This document shows, piece by piece, positions 5,878-23,408 of a stretch of DNA of 64,000 nucleotides. The position numbers and the translations under genes are program-made. The notes under the pieces are model-generated. The model did no database searches, was not told the origin of the DNA, and saw only the letters and a list, made by a program, of their open reading frames with translations. Within the stretch, counting starts at the first letter, position 1; each line of letters begins with the position of its first letter. Source of the stretch: an uncultured virus (IMG/VR IMGVR_UViG_3300024351_000022) (taxonomy: Duplodnaviria > Heunggongvirae > Uroviricota > Caudoviricetes); IMG/VR virus record IMGVR_UViG_3300024351_000022; one strand, written 5' to 3'.

Positions 5878-6080
5878 GCGTCGCCTCCTTTGTTTGGTGC
5901 CCTCATTGAGGATTCCACCACGGGAATGATGGTGGCGGGAAATGCCTTGCGTGTGCCGTCAATGGTGACGGGTTTGATGCGGCCTTCTTTGGTGAGGCGG
6001 GCAAGGCAGCGCCGCACTCCTGGCCGTGAGCGCTGGAGGCGTCGTGCGATCTCCCCCGCCGAGAGGAGTTCTGTTTTCAT
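5874..6080 (-). CDS. Small HTH DNA-binding protein
   Basis: LLSAGEIARRLQRSRPGVRRCL; ATGA coupling to the next gene. Confidence 0.7.
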   Translation of the reverse strand: MKTELLSAGEIARRLQRSRPGVRRCLARLTKEGRIKPVTIDGTRKAFPATIIPVVESSMRAPNKGGDA

Positions 6081-6232
6081 GGTGATTCGATTGCTTGGGA
6101 GGAGTTAAGTATCCAACGCGGAACTTGCAAGAATGTTCTGCCAAAAAGAACACTTTGACCAGGGGGGTGTCATGGTCTATCAAATCGCCGTGCTGAAACT
6201 CGTCACAAGAGTGGATGGTTGCTCCTTTGTTT

Positions 6233-6248
6233 TGTTCCACGTGGAACA
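6233..6248. promoter_or_regulatory. parS: Canonical chromosomal-type parS palindrome
   Basis: TGTTCCACGTGGAACA perfect 16-bp palindrome (18 bp with flanks). Confidence 0.6.
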
Positions 6249-6255
6249 ACAAGAA

Positions 6256-6801
6256 ATGGAGTGGGGCTATCGGTGGAGGATGGTCGGCGACTTTCCGCCC
6301 GCCTATCTGGCGTGGCGGTCACCAGTGAAAACAAGCGAATGGATTAAGGTGGTTCAGTGCGATGCTGAGGGGTGCCGGGTGGAAGTTGAGTGGCACGATG
6401 GCGATGGCGATTGGAAGATTCCGGAGCATGTGCAGTTTCAAAGGGGGCAAGCGGAATTCAAGGTGGAAGCCAAGGCGAACGTTCGGCACAAGGGTTTCCG
6501 ACATTCCGCTTTTGCGGTGGTCAGGGATTCCGGTGTGGCGAGGTTTGATTTCCGCGCTGTGCTGGACATGGTGGCGGGTGAGGTGCAAATCGTGAAGGGG
6601 GTCGCGGATGCGCCGTGCGTTGCCAACCTGCTGATTGAGCCGGGTGAGTTCCGTTGCGAACAGGAGGGGGTCGTGATCACAAACGTCAGTGCCTGTGTCG
6701 GCGCGTGGAAAGCAGATGCGCGAGCGCCAATGCTGCGGAAGGTAGAAAGCCGTGGCTTTGTCTATGCTAAGGGGAATGCGAAGGAGGTGAACGATGGCTG
6801 A
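6256..6801 (+). CDS. Hypothetical protein (start uncertain)
   Basis: ORF downstream of TTGACC-N17-TATCAA (6155-6183), overlapping the next gene. Confidence 0.55.
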   Translation: MEWGYRWRMVGDFPPAYLAWRSPVKTSEWIKVVQCDAEGCRVEVEWHDGDGDWKIPEHVQFQRGQAEFKVEAKANVRHKGFRHSAFAVVRDSGVARFDFRAVLDMVAGEVQIVKGVADAPCVANLLIEPGEFRCEQEGVVITNVSACVGAWKADARAPMLRKVESRGFVYAKGNAKEVNDG

Positions 6802-9800: not shown

Positions 9801-9898
9801 TCGTTCTGGATCACTGCTTGGGCAAACTGATTTTCTTCGGCACGCCTCGCCTGATTGGCTCGTCTGTGATTATCGATGATGAATCCACGTCTGCGTAA
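6794..9898 (+). CDS. Putative tail/baseplate hub-like virion protein
   Basis: 1034 aa; N-terminal GDYVALQFGGVSTFFGIISRI...VKFTLLDNR is typical of tail hub proteins. Confidence 0.6.
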   Translation: MADIGGGAIKSQKATKAWGVNPASAEVEVVIDDPGSFALEEGDYVALQFGGVSTFFGIISRIESYVSEGSGIMVKFTLLDNRIRLQWGEVFGAWNIEDQRGNASAGRATAGVANIGSDSGSPPVSENVNFGETPGLGASSNPGLAVPANPQLGRRKYLHQPPEMTASGIWIETDEPLSARQILNSAFAGAWSSYSFARSYHSSMDSIYPLGIDATDGMKLQSLVAQINEACGLEVRLEGSRTLVWGRKGDGLLPVIPSDHAGTRRVGRALSANDTAVMVIGDANVVQVLNLELEPDWNREFEAFIDEAAWVREVARAFELETDTKAKRAELMARAREVTVLQYATKVEDAAFMDYGMLGASSRLHVPVWTYVQELVFRSYRIPRDYAFGGVPLSSLRVAPKILCGTEISGTGLSANQRYRRTFEAFYPDARMEVVVRGQPLDLVDGRSIQLFSARRITNLRDQWVPYQDFEFDDATMAVRFRSPIFLDGDPAQDKALYSLVNKGKGGGVDVTAAVPENSSYLDVVVPNPAYQIEPAGVKVSLAWELGKYRKVRGSGNRRGKLKVPGLSMHLLDVSQDSGYSSSAVATVTGNPAFLPASGGVEMKEIKLESGLTAGDTADAASDGVIQLQPVEDDGSFERFGQGGMGLSNTIDRVTIEIGDQGLKETVEFTKARPSASFMAERLVARIQRAGELFPGQAALKRQIDSYRLEAKLQAGMTSTRSPTHKKMGDVNSVPIGAEIQSTVQHVDELSAAPEGGWKAGHVVWLDDQGRPSTAGTVFGGVLVSEPSEAGSGEEKVVLNCATAGTVPVICEAGTVDQVWCDKGSSFGRQDGTYFLGELRHADAVPDVPEAVGPVVRAMVALGFGGGVAEELCGFQQIRTGASAGEGSESSGGDWQIVGGTVVAGPRAWGVDPHEILTTVDGRFRYFLRVRVTINSNAGVAWPGIESSEEPEWERVTASAGYPESFLPTNVEKTGDVIIPLMLLEIEDGVPRIIQREGVCSPIVLDHCLGKLIFFGTPRLIGSSVIIDDESTSA

Positions 9899-9904
9899 GA
9901 TGTC

Positions 9905-11461
9905 ATGAGTAAGTCAAAGTTCGGGCCGCCGGTGGAGGATCTTGATGCTTGGTTGCAGGCATTGGAAAACTGCGGGTGTTGTCCGCCGCCGCGTTGCTGT
10001 CCTCCCCGTTTGGAGTGCCGGGGGGTCACGGCATCGGCCGTCGTTGGGGCATGGCATCCGATGGATTGGGAGCCGCCATCGGATTCGGGTGAGATGCCGG
10101 AGTTTCCTGTTCTCTATCTCAGCAGGAAAAAAAGGACCAGGTCGAAGGTGGAGGGGAATTCCACGACGACATACAATTACAAGGTCAGGAACAAGGGGAC
10201 CGGAATGATTGTTCGTGAGACGGAGAGGTCCACGACCATCACGGTGAGCAGGGAGATCGGGGTCTTCGATGAAGTGGATGCCAATGTCTCGTCGGAGAAC
10301 TTCATTCATTTGATCGAGCGGCGTAATGGTCCGTGGGACTGCTGGGAGGAAATTCCGGAATGCACGGTGGAGGGAGTGGTGACTCATCGTTACGAGAGAG
10401 ACGAAATTTTCTCGGAGTCGGAGGAAACATCCGGGGAGATTGATTCGGATACTGACGTGGAAGAAACGGAGAAGCGTTGGTCGCGCACGGTCAGTCATGT
10501 GGAAGGAGTGAATAGCGAAGACTCGGACGGGTGCCTGGAGATCGATACAAGAAACACGGTTCCGGAGAATCTTTCGTGGTTGGAGAGCGTGGCGGTGTTG
10601 TGCCTCGGGGATTCGGATGACTACTCGGAGGAGGAAACCGTGACGGCGACCTACAAGCTGTTTCGCTCAACCCTTATCGAGACGGGTTCTGCTACGGAAG
10701 ACACGGGTTGGATTGATCGGCCCGCTGGCGGTGAGCAACGCACGGTGGATACATGCAGTGGCTATCGATCCAGTATCTTTGAGAACGAGACATTCCTCTC
10801 TGACCCGGTGACAAAGGTTGAGGCGGCCACTGCCGCGAGGGAGAAGCTGGTGGATTGGATGCAGCGGATCGAGCAGCTTTGTGGCAGTGATTCCTTTTCC
10901 GATGTGGAGGAGGAATGCTCCGCGTTGTTGCCTGTTTGCAGTGCGGAATGCGTGGCCAAGATGATGTTGGATTGGCCGACCGAGGGGGATACCACGGGTG
11001 CGGCGGTGTACACGGCGGACATCGCGGCGTTTCAATACAGGTGGAAGCTGGATCAGTGCTGCCGGAATCAGAAGATCCGCATGGAGTGGGATGAGGTCTT
11101 CTATCCCAGGGAGTTCTTGGAGTGGCTGGAGGTTGCCCGCATGGAATCTGAGCCGTCTGATCCTCCGGTGCTGCCCACCATCACCAAGAAGGCGTGGGTA
11201 TGGGAAGGGGAGCCGCCGGGCTGTGATGAATTTGCGAGCGGATTCGATGATGAGGAAAGGTATGCGAATGAGACCATGTGGTCGCCGTGGGGTCTGCCGG
11301 TGCTGGTGCCGCCGGGGCAGCAAGGCATCGTGGCATTGAGGAACCTGCTTGTGGACTGCAATCCGGATAGCCCGTGGGGGTCGAAGCCGGAACTCATGAT
11401 TGGGGTGTTGCCGAGGTATGATGAATCGGATCTTGATGAGAACGAAGACACGGAGATATGA
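9905..11461 (+). CDS. Acidic, Cys-rich hypothetical (virion-associated?) protein
   Basis: 518-aa ORF, CGCCPPPRCCPPRLEC N-terminus, follows the tail gene. Confidence 0.6.
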   Translation: MSKSKFGPPVEDLDAWLQALENCGCCPPPRCCPPRLECRGVTASAVVGAWHPMDWEPPSDSGEMPEFPVLYLSRKKRTRSKVEGNSTTTYNYKVRNKGTGMIVRETERSTTITVSREIGVFDEVDANVSSENFIHLIERRNGPWDCWEEIPECTVEGVVTHRYERDEIFSESEETSGEIDSDTDVEETEKRWSRTVSHVEGVNSEDSDGCLEIDTRNTVPENLSWLESVAVLCLGDSDDYSEEETVTATYKLFRSTLIETGSATEDTGWIDRPAGGEQRTVDTCSGYRSSIFENETFLSDPVTKVEAATAAREKLVDWMQRIEQLCGSDSFSDVEEECSALLPVCSAECVAKMMLDWPTEGDTTGAAVYTADIAAFQYRWKLDQCCRNQKIRMEWDEVFYPREFLEWLEVARMESEPSDPPVLPTITKKAWVWEGEPPGCDEFASGFDDEERYANETMWSPWGLPVLVPPGQQGIVALRNLLVDCNPDSPWGSKPELMIGVLPRYDESDLDENEDTEI

Positions 11462-13074
11462 ATGACCCGTTTGACGTTGAACGATGGGGTGGAGCGAAGT
11501 TTGCCAGGCCGGAGACGATCTGGACGGAGGGTTTTGGATCGCTTTCACTGGAGATGCCTGCGGTGTCCATGTCGATCTCCGCGAGGTTGCTGCCTGCGGA
11601 TAGGGCGGTCGATTATTACATGGGGGTGGAGGTGCCATCGCGTGGATGTGTGGCCTGCGGGTGGGGGGATAGGAAAGTGGGATCGTCGCGCATCCCGGTG
11701 GGTCCATTCATGGCGCAGCAGGCGGTGGGGCCTGTGATCCGGCCCGTGGTCTTCACTATGCGGTGGGGCAGTGAATGGTGGCTGGATGAATGTGCTCCGA
11801 CGCTGGATGCGTGGTGTGAGCGGCACTCATTGGATCTCAGGGTGGTCGGGGAGTGGGATGCGGCGTATCCTTCGCCCAAGTTTGCCTTTGTGGACATGCT
11901 GCGCGAGTTTATCGCCAGCGGGGAAGAGTGGATGATGTATGTGGATGCTGATGTGGTGGTGCATCCGCTGGCTCCATTGCCTCCGGATCTGGGGGTGGGC
12001 TTGCACGCATGCACGGATAAGCTCCAAAGGCGCAAGGGGCGTGGGCTTTGGGCGGAGTGGTGCCAGGAAAGGTTTGGGGAAGCGCCGGGGGATGAATACT
12101 CATACAGAAATGCCGGGATCTGGCTATGTCATCGCGATGCGGCCGCCGCCTTCCTCGGCATCATTCGCGAGCCCTATCACGAGGGCATCATGGAACAGCA
12201 CCATTGGAACTGGTGGCTCAGCCAGGCGCAAGCTGGTGGTGTCTTCCATGTGGGCGAGATGCCGGTGGAGTGGAATCGTGTGCCGGACGCCGTGGGGCCG
12301 GGATGGATGGTGCATATCTACGGCAAGAACAAGGAGCGTGCCATCACCCGGTTCCGTGAGCGGGGATACATCCCGGATGCGGTGAAGAAAGTAGGGAAGA
12401 TGCCAGCGGTCCCGGACTTCGGGGAAAAGGCCATCGTGTGGCCGTGGATTTCCACCAAGGCGGATTGGGATGAGCTATGGTTTTCCCTGCGCTCGGTGCA
12501 GAAGCATTGGCGGGAAGAAGGCTGGAAGCTGGTGCTCTTGGGAGATAGGCGGCCATCGTGGTGGCCGGGCGAGTTTGTAAAATGTGGCGAGTATGAGCAT
12601 GCGCTTTGGGTTGGCTTGCACTGCGCCAGCCGGGTGCTGTGGATGAATGATGACATCTTCATGTTGGCGGATCAGGGGCCGGATGACTTTTCCGTGGTGC
12701 CTGCGGTATCGAGGATGGAGAGCAAGCTCGGCAGGACTCTCGTGGCGGGGAATGTCTGGCGGCGTGGCCTGGGGCAGGTGCTGATGAGGCTGCATCACCA
12801 TGGGCGGCCGGCGGTGAACTATTCCACCCACACCCCCTACCTCTATGAGAGGGAGCGGGTGGATGAGATTTTCCGGCGCTTTGGGATCTTCTGGAAGATT
12901 CCCTTCGAGACGGCCTATCACGGGTGGTATCAGACCCCATGGGAGGAAATGCACAAGCGCAAGGCGAAGTCTCCGCATGACATGGGCCGGAAGCTGTGGA
13001 TCAACCCGGCATTCGCCCAGGTCACGCAGGCGTTTCGGGATGAGATGGCGTCCCGCTTCGGTCAGCCCTTGTAG
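11458..13074 (+). CDS. Glycosyltransferase (GT-A, DxD) fused to a Stealth-like domain
   Basis: YVDADVVV, YRNAGIWL, EQHHWN; then ELWFSLRSVQKH, WMNDDIF, STHTPY. Confidence 0.7.
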   Translation: MNDPFDVERWGGAKFARPETIWTEGFGSLSLEMPAVSMSISARLLPADRAVDYYMGVEVPSRGCVACGWGDRKVGSSRIPVGPFMAQQAVGPVIRPVVFTMRWGSEWWLDECAPTLDAWCERHSLDLRVVGEWDAAYPSPKFAFVDMLREFIASGEEWMMYVDADVVVHPLAPLPPDLGVGLHACTDKLQRRKGRGLWAEWCQERFGEAPGDEYSYRNAGIWLCHRDAAAAFLGIIREPYHEGIMEQHHWNWWLSQAQAGGVFHVGEMPVEWNRVPDAVGPGWMVHIYGKNKERAITRFRERGYIPDAVKKVGKMPAVPDFGEKAIVWPWISTKADWDELWFSLRSVQKHWREEGWKLVLLGDRRPSWWPGEFVKCGEYEHALWVGLHCASRVLWMNDDIFMLADQGPDDFSVVPAVSRMESKLGRTLVAGNVWRRGLGQVLMRLHHHGRPAVNYSTHTPYLYERERVDEIFRRFGIFWKIPFETAYHGWYQTPWEEMHKRKAKSPHDMGRKLWINPAFAQVTQAFRDEMASRFGQPL

Positions 13075-13550
13075 AGCGGTTTCTTGGGGTGCTCTTGCTC
13101 GGAGGGTTTCAGTGCTTCGACCCACGCTTTGGCCATCGTCCGGGCGTGGACGCTGCTCGCGAAGAGCCGGGCAAAGCTGATGAACAGGTCGCGGTCGGGC
13201 GGGCTTAGAGCCTCCATGGACTCAAGCACGGCCGGGAGTGCTGGATTGCCTGCCATGTAGCGGAATTCATCGTCGCGGATCTTGGCGATGTCCTTCGAGA
13301 GTTCCGTCGGTGTTGTCTCCCATGTCACATGGCAGAGCGCCCATAGGGCCAATAGGTGGGCGAGTTCCTTCTCGTCGCGGCAAAGCGGGCCGTAAGATTT
13401 TTCAATCGTTGGCCACTCCACCAGGGACTTGCTCTCCGCTTTGTAGATGGTGCTGCGGGAGACGCCTCTCTCCTCGGCCAGGGCGGAGATGCCGATGTTG
13501 TGCCTTTTTCGGAGCTTGCGGAGGTAGTCGGTGAGTGGGTGGTTCGTCAT
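13062..13550 (-). CDS. XRE-family repressor (CI-like)
   Basis: LRKLRKRHNIGISALAEERGVSRSTIYKAE; divergent from the early operon. Confidence 0.8.
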   Translation of the reverse strand: MTNHPLTDYLRKLRKRHNIGISALAEERGVSRSTIYKAESKSLVEWPTIEKSYGPLCRDEKELAHLLALWALCHVTWETTPTELSKDIAKIRDDEFRYMAGNPALPAVLESMEALSPPDRDLFISFARLFASSVHARTMAKAWVEALKPSEQEHPKKPLYKG

Positions 13551-13689
13551 CGTGAGTCTCTGCTTCCCTGACGGATCGCTGGGCGGAATTATTCACGGAT
13601 CGTGGAAAAAACGCAACGGCTTTCCCTGTATTACACGATACGCGGAAATCCGATGTTGACGATTCGCGGATTCCGCGCAACATGGACGC
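13551..13689. promoter_or_regulatory. Divergent immunity/control region
   Basis: TTGACG at 13656; related palindromes CGCGGAAATCCG (13641-13652) and CGCGGATTCCGCG (13665-13677). Confidence 0.6.
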
Positions 13690-13923
13690 ATGGCAAGCGA
13701 AACGCGCACGAGCCTTTACAGGCTACTGAGGGAAACGGCCCGCGCCTACCTCGACGCAAGGGAGGGAGAGGACAGCAGGGAAGAAACGGTGAAGATTCGT
13801 CATGAGGTGGATTGTCTGCTTGCTCTTGGGCAGGCGGATGAGTTCTGCCCGGTGACGGCGTTCAATGAACATTCTGCCAAGACCAGCAAGTCTGGGCGGA
13901 TCATGGTGGGAGGTGGAGCATGA
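13690..13923 (+). CDS. Small early hypothetical protein
   Basis: First gene of the rightward operon, ATGA-coupled. Confidence 0.6.
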   Translation: MASETRTSLYRLLRETARAYLDAREGEDSREETVKIRHEVDCLLALGQADEFCPVTAFNEHSAKTSKSGRIMVGGGA

Positions 13924-14186
13924 TCCGGGTCTCGAAAAACGTGGCCAAGGACGCGGCAGGCAAAGCAAGAAAGAGGGTGGCAGGGAAGAAGGCCAAGCCT
14001 GCCCCTGCCGATCCGCTTGCCGGGCGGGAGGTGCTCGTGCCTGTGATGGTGCGCGTGCTGGTCCCGGCGGAGATTGTCGATGACATCGATGCCGCCCAGG
14101 CGGCCGTGGAGTGGCTCATGGAATCCGGGATCAAGGTGGATGGTGCGCCCGTCGCGTTTGATCTCATTACCCCCCAGGTGCGATGA
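13920..14186 (+). CDS. Hypothetical protein
   Basis: ATGA overlaps on both sides. Confidence 0.6.
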   Translation: MIRVSKNVAKDAAGKARKRVAGKKAKPAPADPLAGREVLVPVMVRVLVPAEIVDDIDAAQAAVEWLMESGIKVDGAPVAFDLITPQVR

Positions 14187-14956
14187 ATGAGGTATCCTGC
14201 TACGCGGTGCCGCTTACCCTCGGCCATAGGGCGTGCGATATGGTCATGGTCTCCATGGCGGCGACCTTGGGAATCCCTGCCGCATCGGCCATGGGTTTCC
14301 TCCATCGTCTCTGGCATGCTGTCGCCATGGACCCGCAAGGGCATCGGGCGGTCCCTGCCGAACGTTCGGCTTGGCCATCGTCTCGCGATGCGTGGGTGCT
14401 TGAGGCCGGTGCTGGTTGGCTGGGGGATCGCGGGGAGCTATTCACCCTCTGGGTGGACTCCGGGGTTATTGAGCTGCATCCCGATGCTGGGGAGGATGCG
14501 CAAATGCGGGTGGTGTTGGTCGGCTGGGCGGATGCCAACCGTCAAGGGCCGGGTGCCAAGAAGCTCGCTGCGCTTGGGGGTATCGCCAAGGCGCGCAACA
14601 GCGCGAGGAAAGTGGCCGAGGGCGATGCGGCGGAGCTGCTGGAGTGGTATCGCCGGAACCGTGTGGGGCTGCACGCGGAAGCGGGTATCGAGAGAGTCAA
14701 GGAGGCGGTGATCTTCGTGCGTCAGATTGAGCGGCTCATGCGGTGGGTGCCAGCCACCGAGAGGGCGTTCATGGAGGGGGCTGTGGAGAAATCCCTCAAG
14801 GCGTTGGACGCTCTTGGGCAAGACAAGGATATGTTCCTGAGCTGGCTGGTGGCAAATCGGGGCCGGGATATCATCCCTGGCCGCGTGGATCTCCTGCTCG
14901 GCGAGGTAGGGAAACTCCACGCTCACGCAAAATCTTGGATGGAGGCCATGCAATGA
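14183..14956 (+). CDS. Hypothetical protein resembling phage replication-initiator N-termini
   Basis: MGFLHRLWH...AGWLGDRGELFTLWVDSG...VGWADAN pattern; coupled. Confidence 0.55.
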   Translation: MNEVSCYAVPLTLGHRACDMVMVSMAATLGIPAASAMGFLHRLWHAVAMDPQGHRAVPAERSAWPSSRDAWVLEAGAGWLGDRGELFTLWVDSGVIELHPDAGEDAQMRVVLVGWADANRQGPGAKKLAALGGIAKARNSARKVAEGDAAELLEWYRRNRVGLHAEAGIERVKEAVIFVRQIERLMRWVPATERAFMEGAVEKSLKALDALGQDKDMFLSWLVANRGRDIIPGRVDLLLGEVGKLHAHAKSWMEAMQ

Positions 14957-16026
14957 TGAAGGCTCTAACGGTAAAACAGCCATGGGCTTCCCTTATTATC
15001 TATGGGGGGAAGGATATCGAGAATCGGTCATGGGCTACGGAATATCGTGGCCGGGTTTTCATTACGGCCAGCAAGGGGTGGAACAGCGGTGAGCAAGAGG
15101 CGGCCAAGGGGTTGATTGAGGACAGGAAAATTCCTCAGAAACTTTCGGAAACCTACACAAGGATTAACTGCGGCGGGGTGATTGGAACCGTGGAGATCGT
15201 GGATTGTGTCAAGCAGAGTGACAGTCCGTGGTTTGTGGGTCCTTTCGGTTGGGTGCTGAGGAATCCGCGCCCGCTGGTTTTCAGGCCGATGAGTGGTGCC
15301 TTGGGGTTATGGGATATGGAATACCCGGAGTCTGCGGTGGGAACCTCCCGGGTGCTGTTCCTGGACGTGGACGGCGTTTTGAATGGTGGCGTCGGCCGTG
15401 GGTTGGATGAGGTCATGCTTGCTCGACTGGGTTCGATCATCCGTCATGCGGATCCGGCCGTGGTCATCTCCTCCTCGTGGAGGATTGAGGCGGAGCTGCT
15501 GCGGCGGATCACTCTTGCGGTGGAGAGGCTTGGCGGGCGCGTCGTCGGTCATACCCCGTTGCCGGAGGAGGTGGGGCAGGGGAGTTGCAGGATCATCGCT
15601 GGAAGGGAGCGCTGGGTGGAGATTCAGGATTGGCTGGATGCCCATCCTGTGGCGGATGGGGAAACTCGCAGGGTGGTGATATTGGATGACGAGGCCGAGA
15701 TGGGTCCCTTGGGTGAATATCACGTGAGGACGGAATACGAAAGTGGCTTGCAGCGGCAGCATGTGGAGCGGGCTTTGCGCTTGCTGCTTGATCCGCCGAG
15801 GAAAACGGGTCCTACGGTATTGGAGTTGGGCAAGTGGTATGTCCTGCGCTCGGCCAGGGGGATCAGGTGGAAAGTCCGGCTGGTGACGATCAGCCCCTGC
15901 GGCAAATACTGTCGGGTGAGTTACTCTGGCAGCGCTGCGGGAGGTCGCCAATGTCTCGCGTCAGAGCTTGAGGACTGGGAGGAAAAGGCCGAGGCGGGCG
16001 GCCGTCTATGGAAGGAGGAGGCGTGA
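14953..16026 (+). CDS. ASCH domain fused to a Swiss-army-knife-type HAD phosphatase
   Basis: KALTVKQPWASLIIYGGKDIENRSW (ASCH); FLDVDGVLN, VVISSSWR, VILDDE (HAD). Confidence 0.82.
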   Translation: MMKALTVKQPWASLIIYGGKDIENRSWATEYRGRVFITASKGWNSGEQEAAKGLIEDRKIPQKLSETYTRINCGGVIGTVEIVDCVKQSDSPWFVGPFGWVLRNPRPLVFRPMSGALGLWDMEYPESAVGTSRVLFLDVDGVLNGGVGRGLDEVMLARLGSIIRHADPAVVISSSWRIEAELLRRITLAVERLGGRVVGHTPLPEEVGQGSCRIIAGRERWVEIQDWLDAHPVADGETRRVVILDDEAEMGPLGEYHVRTEYESGLQRQHVERALRLLLDPPRKTGPTVLELGKWYVLRSARGIRWKVRLVTISPCGKYCRVSYSGSAAGGRQCLASELEDWEEKAEAGGRLWKEEA

Positions 16027-16493
16027 GTAAGTCAAAGAGCGAAGAAGCCATGGCTAAGCGGGCATCTACCGTAAGGAATTGCGGTAATTGCAGATGGGCA
16101 AGTTGGGAGATGACAGAGAAGGGGAATCCTCGTAAGTCTATCGCGGGCAAATGCACGTATCCAATCCCTGACCTGCCGCCCATGCCATACGCTGTGATTG
16201 TCGAGACACCGCGAAAAAGGTTAGTGTGGGCAAACAAGGGAGCCGATTGTCCAACGTTCAGCGAAAAAGCCAAGTCAAGCCCATCGGATGAGATGGCATG
16301 TTCTGCGTCTTCTCTTTTGAGTGAAGCGAAGGAACGCCTATGCGACGCATCCGTCTGCAACCGAATGGGTAAGCCCGCACATTCCGCGGGATACGTGCGA
16401 TTGGCCATGGAGATACTGGCAAAAGCGGAAAAGTCGCTGCTGGGCCTTCCGGGGAACGCCAAAGCGCAGCCACCGACGAGAAAGGAAATCTAA
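16023..16493 (+). CDS. Hypothetical Cys-containing protein; its C-terminus runs into the first attC-like site
   Basis: GTGA-coupled start; CGNC motif; stop overlaps the Lar start (TAATG). Confidence 0.6.
   Translation: MSKSKSEEAMAKRASTVRNCGNCRWASWEMTEKGNPRKSIAGKCTYPIPDLPPMPYAVIVETPRKRLVWANKGADCPTFSEKAKSSPSDEMACSASSLLSEAKERLCDASVCNRMGKPAHSAGYVRLAMEILAKAEKSLLGLPGNAKAQPPTRKEI
16281..16306 (-). repeat. attC-like half-site remnant (R''-L'' arm only)
   Basis: CCATCGGATGAGAT-GGCAT-GTTCTGC resembles the right arms of the complete sites; partner arm not found. Confidence 0.4.
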
Positions 16494-16620
16494 TGGAACC
16501 CCCCTGCAAAACAGAAGACGACTGCCCCACGCCCACATGGTGCCGTGGTAAAGACCGCTGCCCCAAGCGGTATATCAAAGATAAAGCCAATGGGCGGTTG
16601 GCTGGCGCGGATTGTTCGCT
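16451..16620 (-). repeat. attC-like recombination site 1
   Basis: GGGGAAC-N6-GCGCAGCCACCG ... CGGT(T)GGCTG(G)CGC-N5-GTTCGCT; two unpaired bases. Confidence 0.8.
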
Positions 16621-16792
16621 CTTGCCGTGCCCGTTTTGTGGCTCTGAAGACGTGGGGTATTACGCCTATGCAAATGTCATCCGCTGTCATAACTGTGGGA
16701 CGGAAGGCCCGATTGACTCCGAACGCGATCAGGGCCGCGAGGTTGCCGCCGAAGTTTGGAATCGTAGAGCGAACGACCAAGGTATGCCATGA
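16493..16792 (+). CDS. Lar-family restriction alleviation protein
   Basis: LLPCPFCGS...VIRCHNCG...AAEVWNRRA. Confidence 0.8.
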   Translation: MEPPCKTEDDCPTPTWCRGKDRCPKRYIKDKANGRLAGADCSLLPCPFCGSEDVGYYAYANVIRCHNCGTEGPIDSERDQGREVAAEVWNRRANDQGMP

Positions 16793-16865
16793 ATGCCGCG
16801 CCCTCCAGCCCCGCCTCGCCAATGACTCCCACGCGGCAGTCATTGGCATCACCGCCTAGTTCGCC
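16768..16865 (-). repeat. attC-like recombination site 2
   Basis: AGCGAAC-N6-GGTATGCCATGA ... TCAT(T)GGCAT(C)ACC-N5-GTTCGCC. Confidence 0.85.
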
Positions 16866-17355
16866 CCGTTCGCTGAGTGGGCACCAGTCGGCCTGCATGA
16901 AGTCGGAAGTGTGGCTCACGCCACCGGAGATCCTGCAAGCACTCGGCACGTTCGATCTCGACCCATGCGCCCCCGCCGTGAGGCCGTGGGAGATGGCCCG
17001 TGACCATATCAGCTTACCCACCGATGGACTGGCAGCGGAGTGGCGGGGCCGCGTGTGGCTCAATCCGCCATTCGGCACCAAAGCAGCGGCATGGCTCCGC
17101 AAGATGAAGGCGCACGGGAACGGCATCGCGCTAATCCCGGCACGAACTGAAACAGCGATGTTCTATGAAAGCGTGTGGGGCGGTAGCGATGCTGTGTGCT
17201 TCCTCAAAGGCCGCCCTCATTTCCACCGCGTGGACGGCACGCGGGCACCATTCAACAGCGGGGCACCGATCTGCCTCGTAGCCTACGGACTCGACAACGT
17301 GGAGGCACTGGAACGCGCCTCGCTCGGAGTCGTGGTGCGTTGGGCGAACGCATAA
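16789..17355 (+). CDS. Phage Dam-type DNA N6-adenine methyltransferase
   Basis: WLTPPEIL, FDLDPCA, VWLNPPF, LIPARTET, FLKGR; alternative start at 16897. Confidence 0.85.
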   Translation: MNAAPSSPASPMTPTRQSLASPPSSPRSLSGHQSACMKSEVWLTPPEILQALGTFDLDPCAPAVRPWEMARDHISLPTDGLAAEWRGRVWLNPPFGTKAAAWLRKMKAHGNGIALIPARTETAMFYESVWGGSDAVCFLKGRPHFHRVDGTRAPFNSGAPICLVAYGLDNVEALERASLGVVVRWANA

Positions 17356-17430
17356 GCTGATGGACGCCGCCCTCACAGCCCGAATCCAAGATGGAACGTC
17401 CCCGGCGTTCCATCCAGCGCCTTGTTCGCC
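17343..17430 (-). repeat. attC-like recombination site 3
   Basis: GGCGAAC-N6-GCTGATGGACGCCG ... CGGCGT(T)CCATC(C)AGC-N5-GTTCGCC. Confidence 0.85.
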
Positions 17431-18001
17431 TGCGTTGTTGGACGTGTTTTGCGGCGTCGGAGGATGGACGAAAACGTTCATGGCTCGCGGCTGGAACTGT
17501 GTCGGCGTGGACCTCGCGGACTTCTCCGCCAGCTATCCCGGCCAGTTCGTGCAAGCGGATGCGCTGTCCCTGGATCACCAATGGATCAACCAGTTCGACG
17601 CCGTGCTGATGTCCCCGCCGTGCGAGGAATACGCCCGCGCCTGGCTGCCGTGGCTGCGTGGCGACAAGACCCCGGCCAAGTGGGCAATCGATCTGCTGGA
17701 ATGGTCCGTGGCACTCTGCGACCGACCGGGCCGCATGGTGGAATGCTCGAACTTCTCCGCCCGCCACGTCAAGGGCGCGGCCCGCGTGGGAAGCTACTCT
17801 CTCTGGGGTGACGTGCCCCTGCTCATGCGGCAAGTGCCGCGTGGGAAAATGGCGAAGTCCGGAATGCGCCCCGAACTACGCGCCGAGATCCCTGACGAAC
17901 TGGCCCGCAGCGTGGCGGAGTGGTTCGAGGCCGGTCTCGGATTCCGTCTGGCGAACGCAAACAGTGCTGCCACCGGCAGCGAAAGGAACGATCATGAGTG
18001 A
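17360..18001 (+). CDS. Short DNA cytosine-C5 methyltransferase-like protein
   Basis: LDVFCGVGGW (motif I), MSPPCEEY (motif IV); ATG lies inside the attC arm. Confidence 0.75.
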   Translation: MDAALTARIQDGTSPAFHPAPCSPALLDVFCGVGGWTKTFMARGWNCVGVDLADFSASYPGQFVQADALSLDHQWINQFDAVLMSPPCEEYARAWLPWLRGDKTPAKWAIDLLEWSVALCDRPGRMVECSNFSARHVKGAARVGSYSLWGDVPLLMRQVPRGKMAKSGMRPELRAEIPDELARSVAEWFEAGLGFRLANANSAATGSERNDHE

Positions 18002-18049
18002 GAAACTGGAAATCGAAACGCCGGTTGCCGCAGCCACGCCTTGTTCGGC
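17950..18049 (-). repeat. attC-like recombination site 4 (slightly degenerate)
   Basis: GGCGAAC-N7-GTGCTGCCACCGGC ... GCCGGTTGCCGCAGCCAC-N5-GTTCGGC. Confidence 0.75.
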
Positions 18050-18287
18050 TTGCTCGGGAATTCCAGTGAGCGGGACAACTGAAGCACAAGCCCGACAAAT
18101 CAAGGGCAACTCCTATCGCGTGTATCACGGTGGCGAGGGCAGCTCGTTCACAGATCACAACGATCTGGTGATGGCCCGTGCCTCTGCGTGTGGCCACCCG
18201 AATGCCGTCATCCACAACCTGCGTCCATTCAGTCAGCCGAACGCAATAGGTGAGGCACGGCGAGACAAGACGCCGCCTCAACAATAG
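17994..18287 (+). CDS. Small hypothetical cassette protein
   Basis: Start inside attC site 4 after GAAAGGA; stop inside site 5. Confidence 0.55.
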   Translation: MSEKLEIETPVAAATPCSACSGIPVSGTTEAQARQIKGNSYRVYHGGEGSSFTDHNDLVMARASACGHPNAVIHNLRPFSQPNAIGEARRDKTPPQQ

Positions 18288-18322
18288 ACTTTCCCGCCGT
18301 TGCCTCGACCGTCTTGTTAGCC
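18236..18322 (-). repeat. attC-like recombination site 5
   Basis: Minus strand reads GGCTAAC-AAGAC-GGTCGAGG...CCTCACC-TATTGC-GTTCGGC; textbook attC layout. Confidence 0.88.
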
Positions 18323-18353
18323 GTTCGGGGGACGCGGAAACCACAACAAACAT

Positions 18354-18671
18354 ATGGAAACCACAGAAGAAGCAGTAGGCAGAACCACGGAACTCCCGTT
18401 CGGCAATGCAATCGAAGCCCTCAAAGCAGGGCGCCGCGTGTCCCGCAAGGGATGGAATGGAAAAGGCATGTATCTCTGGCTGCTCCCCGCTGCCATGGTG
18501 AAAGCCGAATGGTGCCGCGAACCTCACTTGAAAGAGGTAGCGGAAGCCAATGGAGGTGAAATCGAAGCCCTTGGATCGATCCGCATGATGACCGCAGACA
18601 AGAAAGTCCTAACGGGCTGGCTCGCCTCGCAGACTGACATGCTGGCCGAAGACTGGGAAATCCTCGACTGA
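18354..18671 (+). CDS. DUF2829 / Thoeris anti-defence Tad2-like protein
   Basis: FGNAIEALKAGRRVSRKGWNGKGMYL...GWLASQTDMLAEDW. Confidence 0.88.
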   Translation: METTEEAVGRTTELPFGNAIEALKAGRRVSRKGWNGKGMYLWLLPAAMVKAEWCREPHLKEVAEANGGEIEALGSIRMMTADKKVLTGWLASQTDMLAEDWEILD

Positions 18672-18708
18672 CCAAACATGCCGGACATGGGGCGAGTGCT
18701 CTGTGTCC

Positions 18709-18807
18709 GGCGAACGCACAAGGTCTGCCATGAATGCCGCGCCCTCCAGCTCCGTCCTCGCCAATGACTCCCACGCGGCACTCATTGGCAGCACCGCCTT
18801 GTTCGGG
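18709..18807 (-). repeat. attC-like recombination site 6 (near copy of site 2)
   Basis: GGCGAAC-N6-GGTCTGCCATGA ... TCAT(T)GGCAG(C)ACC-N5-GTTCGGG. Confidence 0.85.
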
Positions 18808-19563
18808 CTTGCGCCGTTTCACCTTGTCGCGTTGAGCGGTGGCAAAGACTCTACTGCGCTCGCTCTTGAGTTGCGCGAACGCCATCCTGAAATCCCGTTC
18901 CGCTACTACATCACGCCGACAGGATGGGAACTGCCGGAAATGTTCGACTGGTGGCAAGAGCTTGGCGAAAGACTCGGATCGAAGATCATCCCTGTGATGC
19001 ACACAAGCCTTGGAGAGTGCATCAGAAACAACAAGATGCTCCCGAACTTCCGCGCTCGGTTTTGCACGCGGCAAATCAAGATCGAGCCAGCCAGAAAAAT
19101 GATGGCCGCGCTCGCTGCTCAAGGCGAAGTGAATCATTACGTCGGCCTGCGGGCGGACGAAGAAACCCGCCTTGGCGGGATCTTCGATGACATCGGAATT
19201 GTGAATCGTCACCCGTTCCGCGAATGGGGCTGGGGAGTAAATGACGTGTGGCAATGTCTCCAACGTCACGGACTGGCGGAACGCATCCCTGAGCGGACAG
19301 ACTGCGACGTGTGCTATCACCAGCAAATCGGCGAATGGTGGAAGCTCTGGACGAACCACCCTGACCGCTGGATGCGTGGCGAGAATCTGGAAATCGAAGT
19401 GGGCGGCACGTTCCGCACGCCAGGACGGGACACCTGGCCGACATCAATGCGCGAACTGCGCCAAGCCTTTGAGTCCGGCAGGATACCGAAAAGCGAGCGG
19501 CAGCCGGAACTATTCTCTCGCGGAACCATGACGGGGGGCGCGTGTCGCGTGTGCTCGTTATGA
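18730..19563 (+). CDS. PAPS reductase-family (PP-loop) protein
   Basis: LSGGKDSTAL, RFCTRQIKIEP, GLRADEETR, CDVCY. Confidence 0.85.
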   Translation: MNAAPSSSVLANDSHAALIGSTALFGLAPFHLVALSGGKDSTALALELRERHPEIPFRYYITPTGWELPEMFDWWQELGERLGSKIIPVMHTSLGECIRNNKMLPNFRARFCTRQIKIEPARKMMAALAAQGEVNHYVGLRADEETRLGGIFDDIGIVNRHPFREWGWGVNDVWQCLQRHGLAERIPERTDCDVCYHQQIGEWWKLWTNHPDRWMRGENLEIEVGGTFRTPGRDTWPTSMRELRQAFESGRIPKSERQPELFSRGTMTGGACRVCSL

Positions 19564-19567
19564 ATTG

Positions 19568-19592
19568 CCCGAACAGTGTGCTTATGCACGGC
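19568..19592 (-). repeat. Terminal core site / attC half-site closing the array
   Basis: CCCGAAC exactly complements GTTCGGG at 18801; followed by an L-box-like CTTATGCACGGC with no partner arm. Confidence 0.6.
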
Positions 19593-19611
19593 AGCGCAAA
19601 CCAAAATCCAG

Positions 19612-19950
19612 ATGGGACTGAAACGTAAAGGATTACAGGCACGCGCCGTCAAGCGGAAGGCGCTGTCGCGCAACCAGGTTGCGGCCAAAGAGAGGCTTCG
19701 CAAAGAGCGATCAGGGGGCGAGGAAGCGCTTGCTGATCGCCTCATGGCCGAGGCGGAAGATTGGGCGCGGCGGAATCCACTGCCGAAACTTCCGCCTGCG
19801 GCCAAAATCAGGATCGAGATTCCGGGGCTGCCTACCAAAGTCATCCGTGCTCGTAGGTGGCACACGGGAGAAGTGCTTGCGGGGAATCGGATCACGACCG
19901 CCAAGCAACTCGGAAGGCGCATTGGGATGCTTCTGGATCAGTTTCTTTGA
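19612..19950 (+). CDS. Basic hypothetical protein upstream of terminase
   Basis: ORF MGLKRKGLQAR... Confidence 0.5.
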   Translation: MGLKRKGLQARAVKRKALSRNQVAAKERLRKERSGGEEALADRLMAEAEDWARRNPLPKLPPAAKIRIEIPGLPTKVIRARRWHTGEVLAGNRITTAKQLGRRIGMLLDQFL

Positions 19951-19996
19951 GTCAAGCCGCTTGCGCAGTGGGGAGCGTTTCGATAGGTAGAACAAT

Positions 19997-21775
19997 ATGA
20001 GCATCACTTTGCGCCAATCAGAGTTGGAGGAGGCTATTCGTGACCCGGCCTTTGGTTTGTGGATGTTGACCGGCGTGGAACTGGATACGTTCCAGTCCGC
20101 CGCGCTGAAGACGATGTGGTTCACCAAGGAGGTGATCGATTCCAGTGCCATCAACACGGGTAAAACGTTCCGGCTCATTGGGTGGTGTATCCTGCGGGCG
20201 GTCCTGCTGCCGAATCCGCCGTCATTCCGATATCCCGGCCGCCTCATCGGGGCGTTTTACCAGGAGAAGGGATCGGTGGCGGAAATTTTCGTGAAGGAGA
20301 TGGATGCCATGATCTCCTTGCCGGGCGCTGGTTTGCTGCGGCGCGAGCTGAAGCGCCAGGTGCGCGGCCGGCTCGGCTACCACGAGGATGAGAACACGAT
20401 CAATTACCATTTCAGGAATGGCTCCTGCATCAGTGCTCCGGCGCTGAATGTGATGAGGAAATCAAAGACGATGGCGGGCCGCAGATACAGTGATGGCTAC
20501 GTGGAGGAATACACGCAAATCGACTCGGACTCGGATGCGCTGGATGAGCAGGTGCTGGACCGTGTGAACCGCGTGGATTTCAATCCGAAACACCCGGTAT
20601 GGTCGCCGCACATCATCCTTTCGGCCCACGCGGAGTGTCCGGACTCGCACCCGTCCTATGCGCGGATCAAGCAATACAGGGAGCTGATCCGCAATGGATC
20701 GCAAGACCACGCATTGATCACCTCCAGCTCGGAGGACTGGAGCGATAGGAATCCCCTTTTCAAGGTGAAGCGCGAGAAGGCGCTGGCGGACAGGCATCGA
20801 GACTCGCTGAAGCAGGGCAAGGCGAAGGTGGCGCAGAAGCACAAGGGTTTGTGGCTGGCTGGTGGGGCGGATTGGTATGACAACGATTTCCGCGACCACT
20901 GCCTGTGCATGGACATCCTACCCGAAAGCAAGGCCATGCCGGGGGCGCTCTATGCGCTGGGCTGGGACACGGCATCCAGCGGCGGGGAGAAGGCGGACTG
21001 GAATGCCGGTGTCACCTGCCGGGCGATTCCGGTGACGGTCAGGCAGCTCGGGCAGCCGGGGGTGATGCCCTTCGAGAATGGAACCTACTATCATATCTCC
21101 TTCACGCATGCCATCGGTGCGCTGGACAAGCGCTCTGCGGAATGCTCCGGGATCATCCATACGCTGCATCGGTGGTTTGGTTACAGCCGAATCGTCATGG
21201 ACGGCGGTGGCGGCGGGCAGATGGTCAAGAAGGATTTGTGGAGATCCGAGCAGATCATCGAGGGAGTGATGGAGCAGGGCGTGGTTGGCCTGTGCGAGTG
21301 GGGCATGGAGCACGTGTATCCCTCGTGCTTGCCCATCATCCAGGAGTTCAAGCCGACCGCTCCGCGTTTGCTGCACACGTGGGACCCGGGCTTCACGCGG
21401 GGCATGGATGGTTTGGTGGATAACATGCACCGGAAAATGCGGGATGCTTTCGAGACCAGGACCGTGGCCTGGCCAGCCACGGCCGAGATGCGCGGCGCGG
21501 CGGGGATGCGCGGCATGGGGAGAAAGGAGAGGGAGGCGCAGGAGTGGCTGGATCGGGCGTGGGGGCAGTTTGGCTCCGTGCGCATCCGTGCAGAGAAGGA
21601 TGGCCGGGCAAAGCTTACGAGTAATGGGTTCCATTCCTTCGAGGCGAAGGGTAAGCGAAAGAAGGACCTCGCTTACGCGGCGCTCTATGCGTTCATCGGC
21701 ATCATCTCACTGATCACGGACCCTGAGGTGGGGGGGGGTGAGTCGGCGGATGACGAGGATATGTATTCGAGCTGA
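19997..21775 (+). CDS. terL: Terminase large subunit
   Basis: Walker A INTGKT, GYVEE Walker B-like, RNase H-like LGWDTA, IVMDGGGGG, KDLAYA; precedes the portal. Confidence 0.8.
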   Translation: MSITLRQSELEEAIRDPAFGLWMLTGVELDTFQSAALKTMWFTKEVIDSSAINTGKTFRLIGWCILRAVLLPNPPSFRYPGRLIGAFYQEKGSVAEIFVKEMDAMISLPGAGLLRRELKRQVRGRLGYHEDENTINYHFRNGSCISAPALNVMRKSKTMAGRRYSDGYVEEYTQIDSDSDALDEQVLDRVNRVDFNPKHPVWSPHIILSAHAECPDSHPSYARIKQYRELIRNGSQDHALITSSSEDWSDRNPLFKVKREKALADRHRDSLKQGKAKVAQKHKGLWLAGGADWYDNDFRDHCLCMDILPESKAMPGALYALGWDTASSGGEKADWNAGVTCRAIPVTVRQLGQPGVMPFENGTYYHISFTHAIGALDKRSAECSGIIHTLHRWFGYSRIVMDGGGGGQMVKKDLWRSEQIIEGVMEQGVVGLCEWGMEHVYPSCLPIIQEFKPTAPRLLHTWDPGFTRGMDGLVDNMHRKMRDAFETRTVAWPATAEMRGAAGMRGMGRKEREAQEWLDRAWGQFGSVRIRAEKDGRAKLTSNGFHSFEAKGKRKKDLAYAALYAFIGIISLITDPEVGGGESADDEDMYSS

Positions 21776-21860
21776 GCCGAACGTTCGGCTTGGTTTCGGG
21801 TGTTCTGCCCGGCGGAACAAACCTTGACCTTTGGGCGGAGTTCGTGCATGGGGATGGCCG

Positions 21861-23408
21861 ATGACCATTCATGCCGGTGGAGATGGGGAGGATCGCAAGC
21901 GCCAGATCGGCATGGCCGTGATGGCGATGAACGAGGCGCTGGCATCCCGTTACGCTCAGGAGGAGGCGGAGTTTATCGCGGGAGAGGCTGCGATCATGGC
22001 GTCATCCCCCATGGATCTTTCCTGTGGGGACTTGTGTGGCGTGGCGCTCACCGGCGGGACGGGGAGATCCATGATGGAAATCCAGAAGTTCCGCAGGAAT
22101 TTCTATGGGGAGACCCCGCGAAATCTGTTTCGTTTTGCCCGCTTGCAGGCGGAGCGGAACTGGTTTGTGCGGCCGGTGGTGGAGGACACGCTTGCGATTT
22201 TCAATCACGGTTTCGACGTGCAGGGGGCGGAGGCCAAGAAGTGGCTCAGGGACACGCGGACGAATCTGCCGAAGCTGCCGCTGGCGAGGATTGCCCGCGA
22301 GGCGATGTATGAATACCTCGTGAATACCAACGTGGTGGCCATGTGGCGGCGGGCATCGAGGGAGGGAGCGGTGCCCTACGTGATGATTCTGGATACCAGC
22401 ACCGTGGAGTATGAGATGGTCGCCGGGGCGCGAATGATCAAGGTGGACTACTCGACATCCCGGCGGAGGAAACTCCCGGAGAACATGAAGACAGTCCTGG
22501 GGGAAAGGGCATTCAAGGCCATCGTGGGAGGGAAGAGGCTGGAGATTTCGGAAGGGGATCAGGAGTGGGACTTCGAGGTGCTGACCGGCGGGGTGGAGTC
22601 CTCATTTGCGGTTCCTGCGGTGACCGTGATCCAAGACGATCTTGAGTTTGTGGAGGCGGTCAAGGTCGGTGACTGGAACGGGGCTTATCGCCGCCGCATC
22701 ACCTTGCTGCACGCCACCAAGGGCTACGGGGTGCAGAGCGGGACAAACGCGGGCAGCGTGCGGACCCATGCCAAGCGGGGGCAGTTGCAGTCCATCAATG
22801 AGTGGATGAAGAAGCTCAACGGGCACCACAACATGGCGACGAACTTCGACCAGGATTTCAAGAACATCACCTTCCCGGCCGAGTTCTTCAAGGATGACAT
22901 CGTAGCGCCATCGCTTGCTCGCCTGCTGTTGTTCGGCGGCATTCCGGCGGTGGCTCTGCTGAAAAGCGAATCGCAGATCAATGGGGTATCCCCCTATCTC
23001 ATGCTGATTCTGCGTGCCAGGGCGTTCGAGTTCCGCCGCCGCTTCCAGTGGTTCCTTCACAGGATCTTCAATGCGGAGTCATTCATCGGGCGCATGGGCG
23101 ATGCTCCGCCGCTGGTCCCGGAGTGGTCCGACCGTCTTCTTTACACGATCAAGGAGATGCAGGAGCGGACCCAAACCTTGCGAACCTCGGGTGCGAGTCG
23201 CAGGACCTTGCGGGAGGAAGCCGGTCTGAATCACGCGGAGGAATCGCGGCGCAACCGTGATGAGATCCAAGATCCGGATGCCGTGGTCCCCGTCTTCGAG
23301 GACAATCAGGGACTTTCTCAAGCCCGCTACCCGGGCATCTATCCGGTGGCGGCAGGTCAAAGCTCAGGGTCTCAGGGAGATCCAGGCCGACCATCCGCCC
23401 AAGCCTGA
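21861..23408 (+). CDS. Portal protein (putative)
   Basis: About 515 aa directly after the terminase, helical. Confidence 0.65.
   Translation: MTIHAGGDGEDRKRQIGMAVMAMNEALASRYAQEEAEFIAGEAAIMASSPMDLSCGDLCGVALTGGTGRSMMEIQKFRRNFYGETPRNLFRFARLQAERNWFVRPVVEDTLAIFNHGFDVQGAEAKKWLRDTRTNLPKLPLARIAREAMYEYLVNTNVVAMWRRASREGAVPYVMILDTSTVEYEMVAGARMIKVDYSTSRRRKLPENMKTVLGERAFKAIVGGKRLEISEGDQEWDFEVLTGGVESSFAVPAVTVIQDDLEFVEAVKVGDWNGAYRRRITLLHATKGYGVQSGTNAGSVRTHAKRGQLQSINEWMKKLNGHHNMATNFDQDFKNITFPAEFFKDDIVAPSLARLLLFGGIPAVALLKSESQINGVSPYLMLILRARAFEFRRRFQWFLHRIFNAESFIGRMGDAPPLVPEWSDRLLYTIKEMQERTQTLRTSGASRRTLREEAGLNHAEESRRNRDEIQDPDAVVPVFEDNQGLSQARYPGIYPVAAGQSSGSQGDPGRPSAQA

Follow-up and report, generated by a model that had tools for sequence, protein, structure and literature searches.

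Integrons are known as bacterial gene-capture platforms and, recently, as stores of anti-phage defence. On its bottom strand, their attC site reads 5'-R' (RYYYAAC), spacer, L', variable loop, L'', spacer, R'' (GTTRRRY)-3', with spacers of 5–6 nt and extrahelical bases near L'' at position 16 (usually G), at position 23/24 (a conserved T) and sometimes at position 20; a 6-bp stem separates the first and the last extrahelical base, and the AAC triplet is the sole part conserved among all attC sites (Nivina et al., 2016, PMC5027507). A cluster of attC sites lacking integron-integrase is called a CALIN (Cury et al., 2016, PMC4889954). In phages, Qi et al. (2023, PMC9892861) report 3 complete integrons, which were captured bacterial ones, and 17 CALINs among 10,705 phage isolate genomes, five methyltransferase cassettes that were suggested to help against restriction, and IntI1-dependent attC x attI1 recombination for 5 of the 6 phage attC sites tested. 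Here, we describe the phage side of this relationship in the DNA of an uncultured virus of the Caudoviricetes (IMG/VR IMGVR_UViG_3300024351_000022), of which a stretch of 64 kb (60.7% G+C), hereafter the window, was analysed. The region 16451–19574 is very probably the six-cassette attC array of a phage integron minus its integrase, that is, a CALIN with an attI-type end.

Six structured repeats were found on the + strand between 16451 and 18807, every one at a gene boundary. As a surrogate for the curated attC covariance model (IntegronFinder/HattCI), we used a covariance model, R1, which was trained on seven sites located beside IntI genes on other contigs, none of them from the window, and the window was searched with the filters off. 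R1 recovered five of the six sites, on the + strand only: site 2 (16768–16865; 76.1 bits, E = 6.9e-19), site 3 (17343–17430; 56.8 bits, E = 1.7e-13), site 4 (17950–18049; 28.4 bits, E = 1.5e-5), site 5 (18236–18322; 55.0 bits, E = 5.5e-13) and site 6 (18709–18807; 78.6 bits, E = 1.4e-19, with 16.1 bits on the opposite strand). The next-best match in the 64 kb, with an E value of 0.039, was the antisense of site 6. Site 1 (16451–16620, + strand) was missed by R1 because its loop spans about 110 nt. In addition, both strands of the window were scanned with a rule-based pattern (AAC, 6 nt, 3–4 bp, a one-base bulge on the 3' arm, 4–6 bp, a second bulge, at least 3 bp, a loop, 5 nt and GTT). Seven matches were obtained, of which the five without mismatch were sites 1, 2, 3, 5 and 6, and the remaining two were weak matches elsewhere, at 6477 and 9601; the mean over 30 dinucleotide shuffles was 0.4 matches. 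Model building did not draw on the MAFFT alignments A1, A3 and A4, in which the left arms of sites of unequal length were misaligned.

Counted from the 3' end, sites 1, 2, 3, 5 and 6 consist of a 7-nt box, a 5-nt spacer, 3 bp, an unpaired base 16, 6 bp, an unpaired T23 and more stem, with 12 of 12 pairs formed in each. Base 16 is G in sites 1 and 5 and C in sites 2, 3 and 6. The geometry of the unpaired bases is thus the published one, and the + strand is therefore the bottom strand. In site 4, 2 of 12 pairs form in the fixed geometry; this site has a 7-nt spacer and an additional 2-nt bulge, and the insertions are visible in the R1 alignment. AAC in the 5' box and GTT in the 3' box are present in all six sites (for example, R' GGGGAAC and R'' GTTCGCT in site 1, and R'' GTTAGCC in site 5), and the spacers measure 6 nt and 5 nt in sites 1, 2, 3, 5 and 6 and 7 nt and 5 nt in site 4. 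Both extra bases belong to the 3' arm; T occupies the distal position in five of the six sites, and the proximal position has C in four sites and G in two. These observations bear out what a first-pass annotation, made from the sequence alone, had claimed: six elements at these coordinates, which R1 reproduces to the base in five cases and which fit the geometry in the case of site 1, with 6-nt and 5-nt spacers, a longer spacer in a more degenerate site 4, and two extra unpaired bases on the right arm.

The same anatomy was observed in the related loci described below. Among 63 distinct sites, AAC was found in 60 and GTT in 62, and 37 fit the simple geometry, with T as the last unpaired base in 33 and C as the first in 32 of these 37. 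The two-base form (3 bp, base, 6 bp, base) was seen in 24 sites and the three-base form (3-3-3) in 7, and both are published forms of attC. Within the window, sites 2 and 6 are 92% identical, but the genes downstream of them differ, as do the reading frames that run through them, and the conservation therefore lies in the DNA and not in the protein. A Shine-Dalgarno sequence and an ATG are located within the variable loops of site 1 (16476–16496), of site 4 (17983–17996) and of the sites on the related contig L009 (4430–4400, minus strand); in sites 1 and 4 they belong to the Lar-like open reading frame (ORF) and to the next ORF, respectively. Genes therefore begin inside the recombination site, and its 3' arm is translated.

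Were units cut and joined within the AAC box, a left box would be expected to complement, in its four outer letters, the right box of the preceding site. Complementarity of R''(i) and R'(i+1) at all four variable positions was found for 36 of 45 adjacent pairs from 15 loci, compared with 5 of 61 comparisons within a site and 235 of 3614 (6.5%) non-adjacent pairs. In the window, the next-site scores were 4, 4, 4, 4 and 3 of 4 and the own-site scores 2, 3, 4, 3, 2 and 2, and 23 of 24 boundary positions are complementary. This box rule alone is uninformative on polarity, which follows from the unpaired bases, from the position relative to intI, and from the hairpin upstream of the gene nearest attI.

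The array ends in an R' half-site, CCCGAAC (19568–19574, + strand), which is the exact complement of the R'' of site 6 (GTTCGGG), lies 5 bases past the last stop codon, and is followed by AGTG. For the contigs that carry IntI, a matching junction was found 33–63 nt before intI, where AAC is followed by the conserved sequence AGTGATTATCC... or AAGAATTATCC..., and in 12 IntI loci the junction box exactly complements the right box of the last site. We read this junction as attI, of which the window would retain the junction itself (AAC and then AGTG) and not the rest. Half-sites had been proposed for both ends of the array; the right one is thereby confirmed as attI-type, whereas the left one, near 16281–16305, has a box unlike that of site 1 and is not confirmed. 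The integron model requires no half-site at the left end.

The linkage of these sites to integron integrases was seen in relatives. A DNA pattern from the window sites matched nine viral contigs, and on one of them, L009 (35.8 kb, rated complete), two sites lie directly upstream of an IntI gene and on its strand. The IntI of L009/L012 scores 331.8 bits on TIGR02249 (cut-off 265). Relatives of the L009 IntI were found in 28 viral contigs, most of them 73–100% identical and two 42–49% identical, and the closest IntI among 50,697 deposited phage records is 43% identical at most. Phage genes accompany IntI on these contigs: intI is immediately followed by a terminase-like ORF, a DnaB-like helicase is encoded upstream of the array, and a major head protein is present. 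R1 found 89 sites in 39 other loci (446,651 bases), counts that include the training sites and several near-duplicate loci. For the 29 IntI loci, 73 of 81 matches lay upstream of intI on the same strand, 4 upstream on the other strand, 4 downstream, and none downstream on the other strand; each of the two groups of four comes from one locus present twice. This placement relative to intI is the canonical integron topology. Together with the published anatomy, the R1 matches and the boundary signature, it supports the first-pass claims that the elements are integron attC sites and that their + strand is the recombinogenic bottom strand.

In the window, sites 2 and 6 are 84–85% identical to L013:6792-6890, which adjoins an IntI, and site 3 is 76% identical to L027:3372-3461. 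The nearest attC relatives thus occur in phage arrays with an L009-type IntI, which suggests a shared phage cassette pool. Some of the related loci showed other arrangements. Two more attC sites lie at 11901–12383 of L028/L029, 3–4 kb downstream of intI and on the same strand, as a second small cluster, and L024/L025 hold two attC sites (363–768, minus strand) opposite the intI strand and 7 kb upstream of it, one of which is just 59 nt long. On L001 (3860–4360), a SegE-like GIY-YIG homing endonuclease gene stands directly upstream of two attC sites, one of the form with three extrahelical bases. The 72-kb viral contig L002, which has terminal repeats, carries an attC site and an MT-A70 methyltransferase gene and, about 0.9 kb downstream of these, an SNF2-type helicase gene (6019–10095) that contains an intein with Hint and homing-endonuclease domains. 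Candidates L004/L006, L005 and L007 from the DNA pattern scan showed no hairpin by eye and were set aside as chance or uncertain matches, the estimated number of chance matches being about 3; L004 had a weak R1 match of 33.1 bits.

The window carries further phage genes, including a terminase-like large ORF (19997–21775, + strand), a portal-like ORF (21831–23408), a tape measure protein and a tyrosine integrase. The ORF at 19997–21775 has no Pfam or PHROG match of its own and is presumed to be a terminase because it adjoins the portal-like ORF. The array lies between the replication or regulatory genes and this terminase, and the early operon in which it had been placed is putative at most; in relatives, intI stands between the array and the terminase. 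The terminase-like ORF, which has few relatives (homologues P0001–P0006), served as an anchor for finding relatives of the window. A search for it in viral contigs, with the single protein and with an alignment, found none, and three relatives came from other sources. The metagenome contig L042 (terminase 69% identical) has an orf257 homologue, four + strand attC sites, an attI-like junction, an IntI (330 bits) and the terminase, but all cassette genes of the window are absent from it. It is therefore the locus that is conserved and not the content. In the window, the place that intI takes in L042 is occupied by orf124 (19576–19950, + strand), which belongs to no known family (no match in Pfam, NCBIfam or PHROG). 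For L040 (a Verrucomicrobiia metagenome-assembled genome (MAG), terminase 75% identical and the closest), the contig ends 437 nt upstream of the terminase. For L041 (an Akkermansiaceae MAG, terminase 40% identical), about 400 nt separate the orf257 homologue from the terminase, and no attC site is present.

The six cassette genes are all located on the + strand, and each is preceded by its attC site. Cassette 1 (16493–16792) encodes a Lar-family restriction alleviation protein (PF14354, E = 3.9e-10; TIGR03655, 43.7 bits with a cut-off of 39.6; phrog_599), whose Lar domain comprises residues 43–93 and whose first ~42 codons are inside attC 1. Cassette 2 (16789–17355) encodes a Dam-like N6-adenine DNA methyltransferase (PF05869, E = 6.4e-7; phrog_111, E = 3.7e-35); the methyltransferase domain begins at residue 39, and the true start is probably the ATG at 16898. 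A second DNA methyltransferase is encoded by cassette 3 (17360–18001; phrog_363, E = 9.6e-12, and phrog_757, with Pfam methyltransferase families below cut-off only). The 97-residue product of cassette 4 (17994–18287) belongs to no known family, with no match in Pfam, NCBIfam or PHROG and no usable match in a protein atlas. Cassette 5 (18354–18671) encodes a Tad2-like (Thoeris anti-defence 2-like) protein (PF11195, E = 1.1e-22, 80.8 bits with a cut-off of 25), and cassette 6 (18703–19563) a PAPS-reductase-family protein (PF01507, E = 5.1e-7; phrog_424, E = 6.5e-34), whose domain starts at residue ~40 and whose N-terminal part overlaps attC 6. Judged by its families, this cargo (Lar, two methyltransferases, a Tad2-like protein, a PAPS reductase and one protein without a family) looks like a counter-defence stockpile. 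When the array region was compared by blastn with the 50,697 phage records, the methyltransferase gene alone was matched, at 65–74% identity.

The strand of these genes is the reverse of that in canonical cassettes, in which a top-strand ORF is followed at its 3' end by attC and is expressed from Pc. In the window, five of the six + strand genes have family support, and Pfam matches were found in none of the 8 minus-strand ORFs. For 17 IntI loci, the longest ORF per strand of each cassette was compared with PHROGs, and matches were obtained for 13 of 50 bottom-strand ORFs and 1 of 50 top-strand ORFs, the lone top-strand match being the shadow of a methyltransferase. The 13 bottom-strand matches comprise 8 DNA methyltransferases, 2 RNA ligases (one cassette on two contigs), a PAPS reductase, a regulator and a primase-like protein, to which Pfam adds an Acb2/Tad1-like protein. 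In contrast, a bacterial control of eight IntI regions from the presumed host family, examined with the same model, had Pfam matches in 9 of 29 top-strand ORFs and in 0 of 28 bottom-strand ORFs, and for 27 of 29 intervals the top strand held the longest ORF, whereas the phage arrays L018, L021 and L027 showed the strand opposite to the bacterial one in 15 of 18 intervals. These results indicate that the genes of these phage arrays lie on the attC bottom strand with attC in front of the gene, as the first-pass annotation had stated for the window.

A natural breakpoint was found at the array end. An almost unchanged copy of the array region was found in about 20 metagenome runs from rivers and in two from sediment. 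For the sediment run X17, contigs are unchanged over 15800–18473, and a 1230-nt contig matches 18529–19574 at 100% and then continues for 184 nt into unlike sequence; there is no coverage of 19622–20200 in that run. The sequences part precisely behind the C that ends AAC in the terminal box, which is the expected join for a further cassette or for attI. In X19, X22 and X23, the uncovered parts are due to gaps in the assembly of short contigs and carry no information, and the short pieces X17 record 4 and X22 record 17, with matches of only 18–23 nt, were disregarded.

A complete integron comprises an intI with the IntI-specific domain beside the array, and attI. Both are present in L009/L012 and L042, and the window has an attI-like junction only. 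The six sites lie within 3.1 kb and no IntI is found in the 64 kb; the array is therefore a CALIN as defined by Cury et al. (2016, PMC4889954). The sole integrase of the window (48618–49766) is a generic one, with 25.6 bits on TIGR02249. The host of the window phage is presumed to be a Verrucomicrobia-type bacterium, with an Akkermansiaceae-type family as the host family, and 27 of 61 genomes of this family carry an IntI above the cut-off, as do both MAGs with terminase relatives. Supply of IntI in trans by the host family is thus plausible. R1 found 37 sites in eight IntI regions of Akkermansiaceae-type genomes, and the IntI of the Verrucomicrobiota/Akkermansiaceae integrons is 55–71% identical to that of L042. 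The topology of these bacterial regions varies: in L054 (G018:C5), L051 and L052 (G007), the array lies 3' of intI with its bottom strand opposite intI, which is the inverted-integrase topology, and six other regions (L055–L059 and L061) have the canonical one. In L061 (7416–8594, minus strand), a 392-residue protein with a nitric oxide synthase oxygenase domain (PF02898, E = 4.4e-125) is encoded by a bacterial integron cassette.

Several observations weigh against the interpretation as a phage integron array. No IntI, and no remnant of one, was detected in the 64-kb window by tblastn with two IntIs, and the gene may lie outside the window. The extended consensus RYYYAAC/GTTRRRY does not describe the boxes, which read GSCGAAC/GTTCGSC and fit 2 of the 4 degenerate positions, and position 16 is C in four of the six sites, where G is usual. 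Site 1 escapes R1 and, at 170 nt, exceeds the published range of 57–141 nt, the other five being 87–100 nt long, and site 4 is degenerate. Folding energy alone, for single-strand DNA, favoured sites 2, 3, 5 and 6 (z = -3.96, -2.98, -2.85 and -1.80, respectively), whereas the folding energies of sites 1 and 4 were no better than those of shuffles. R1 is partly homologous in sequence to sites 2 and 6, and their high scores are therefore in part due to homology. As for L042, its longest ORFs are on the top strand and resemble small membrane proteins without family matches, and all frames were negative in a codon test, which thus favoured neither strand. No joints indicating cassette losses or circles were seen in the contigs of four runs, and contigs hide rare forms. 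Finally, the evidence for a counter-defence function consists of family names.

The absence of IntI from the window, the degenerate or over-long sites 4 and 1, the near-identical array in about 20 riverine runs and the lack of joints in the contigs of the four runs would all be expected of a frozen relic, in which the sites are true attC by descent that no longer recombine, and in which the hairpins persist as spacers or leaders of a fixed operon. We consider this possible, if rather doubtful. Five sites retain the perfect geometry of 12 of 12 pairs, which would decay fast without selection, and the complementarity of the boundaries is kept at 23 of 24 positions. Moreover, one natural variant breaks exactly at the junction, and IntI is common in the presumed host family and in related phages.

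RNase III sites lie between the early genes of phage T7. The hairpins of the window might similarly act on RNA, as mRNA processing sites, attenuators or translational gates, and not as recombination sites; they belong to the sense strand of the cassette genes, with Shine-Dalgarno sequences and start codons placed either in the loop (sites 1 and 4) or in a stem (sites 2, 3 and 6). Such a reading leaves the polar linkage to intI, the complementarity of boxes between sites and the attI junction unexplained, and in bacterial integrons the same site type is antisense to the genes. In addition, an Rfam scan of 14000–22000 with E values up to 5 gave three matches at chance level, none of them relevant, and a terminator scan was at chance level. 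We therefore regard an exclusively RNA-level function as improbable; the hairpins may have an additional RNA role beside recombination.

Transposases of the IS200/IS605 type also use hairpins with a bulged T. Miniature hairpins resembling repetitive extragenic palindromes or miniature inverted-repeat transposable elements, spread by an HUH-type single-strand transposase independently of any integron, would account for two copies at 92% identity, but this origin can be set aside almost completely, because no HUH-type transposase was seen among the 38 window ORFs scanned, all copies lie on one strand in one 3.1-kb array at one per gene, and the neighbour-box complementarity and the IntI linkage are specific to integrons.

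For the preferred reading as an integron array, the following mechanism is proposed. The + (bottom) strand of each site, as single-stranded DNA, would form an imperfect hairpin that is bound by integron integrase through the AAC/GTT R box, the unpaired 6/5-nt spacer, the extrahelical base 16 and the extrahelical T 23, and the array would have been assembled through IntI recognition of such hairpins. Further shuffling would depend on an IntI supplied in trans by a related phage, co-infecting or resident, or by a host integron, and such an IntI could excise or insert units of one attC and one gene. The cassette genes run in the same direction as the phage operon and, in relatives, as intI. Because the genes lie on the bottom strand along the phage operon, they would be expressed by read-through from upstream phage promoters and not from Pc, and because transcription would pass through the array towards the terminase, all cassettes would be expressed whatever their distance from attI. 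A promoter and terminator scan of 13000–20500 gave counts no higher than those of shuffles. The cargo may counter restriction, Thoeris and perhaps other defences.

Two further features of the window were noted. Immediately 5' of the array, a 427-residue ORF (14743–16026) has ASCH and HAD 'Swiss Army Knife RNA repair' domains (PF18143, E = 2.3e-20) and may be a further counter-defence or RNA-repair gene outside the cassettes. A direct repeat of 1.1 kb, 86% identical between 2375–3514 and 49923–51062, lies within two DUF927-domain genes (1820–5728 and 49905–51071, both on the minus strand), and may reflect two related replication modules or two mobile elements in the window.

If the interpretation is correct, it would supply a mechanism for the quick exchange of anti-defence genes between phages, in an environmental phage group that has an integron of its own, fixed in position ahead of the terminase and in an orientation that gives expression over to the phage operon. 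The combination of this attC type and a reversed ORF would then be a search signature for new anti-defence genes, among them the 97-residue protein and dozens of cassettes without family assignment in related contigs, and the natural attC sites that overlap coding starts would be a test case for the origin of reversed-gene cassettes. The cassette strand rule, on this evidence, is not universal. We give even chances to the broader proposal that these loci form a 'backwards' phage-native integron lineage, in which attC, attI and intI are canonical, the genes lie on the bottom strand and the whole array is expressed at once, and which would maintain exchangeable counter-defence stockpiles in a phage pool separate from that of host integrons, as a mirror of defence integrons and with the small cassettes of no known family as new counter-defence genes. 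A full-text literature search, which covered few subscription journals and had the supplements of Qi et al. outside its scope, did not find a phage-specific IntI lineage, reversed phage cassettes or Tad2/Acb2-type integron cargo.

The array can be compared with four known systems. With the attC sites and CALINs described in the text of Cury et al. (2016, PMC4889954), it shares single-strand hairpins with AAC/GTT, spacers, bases 16/23 and a variable loop, as well as sites in the same sense, one gene per unit and no intI nearby; it differs from the usual forms in having GSCGAAC in place of RYYYAAC, a first extrahelical base that is mostly C, genes on the bottom strand and a phage locus beside the terminase. 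The phage integrons and CALINs that Qi et al. (2023, PMC9892861) report share with it the attC clusters in phages and some methyltransferase cassettes; this kind of element is therefore already known, and the first-pass view that the window holds no described phage system does not stand. The cassettes in their account run mainly in the same direction, 'typical of bacterial arrays', whereas the genes here are reversed, at least 28 viral contigs have their own IntI at a fixed place between replication genes and terminase, and the cargo includes Tad2-like, Acb2/Tad1-like, Lar and RNA ligase proteins. The sedentary chromosomal integrons that store anti-phage defence, as presented in a preprint by Darracq et al. 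(2024, 10.1101/2024.07.02.601686), are likewise a shuffleable store of conflict genes, of which the array would be the mirror image, since the store is in the phage and the cargo resembles counter-defence; the phage array would lack expression from Pc because its genes face the integrase. The chromosomal integrons of Verrucomicrobiota/Akkermansiaceae have the same attC type, as found by the phage-trained model, and some have an inverted integrase, but their genes lie on the canonical top strand, unlike those of the phage arrays.

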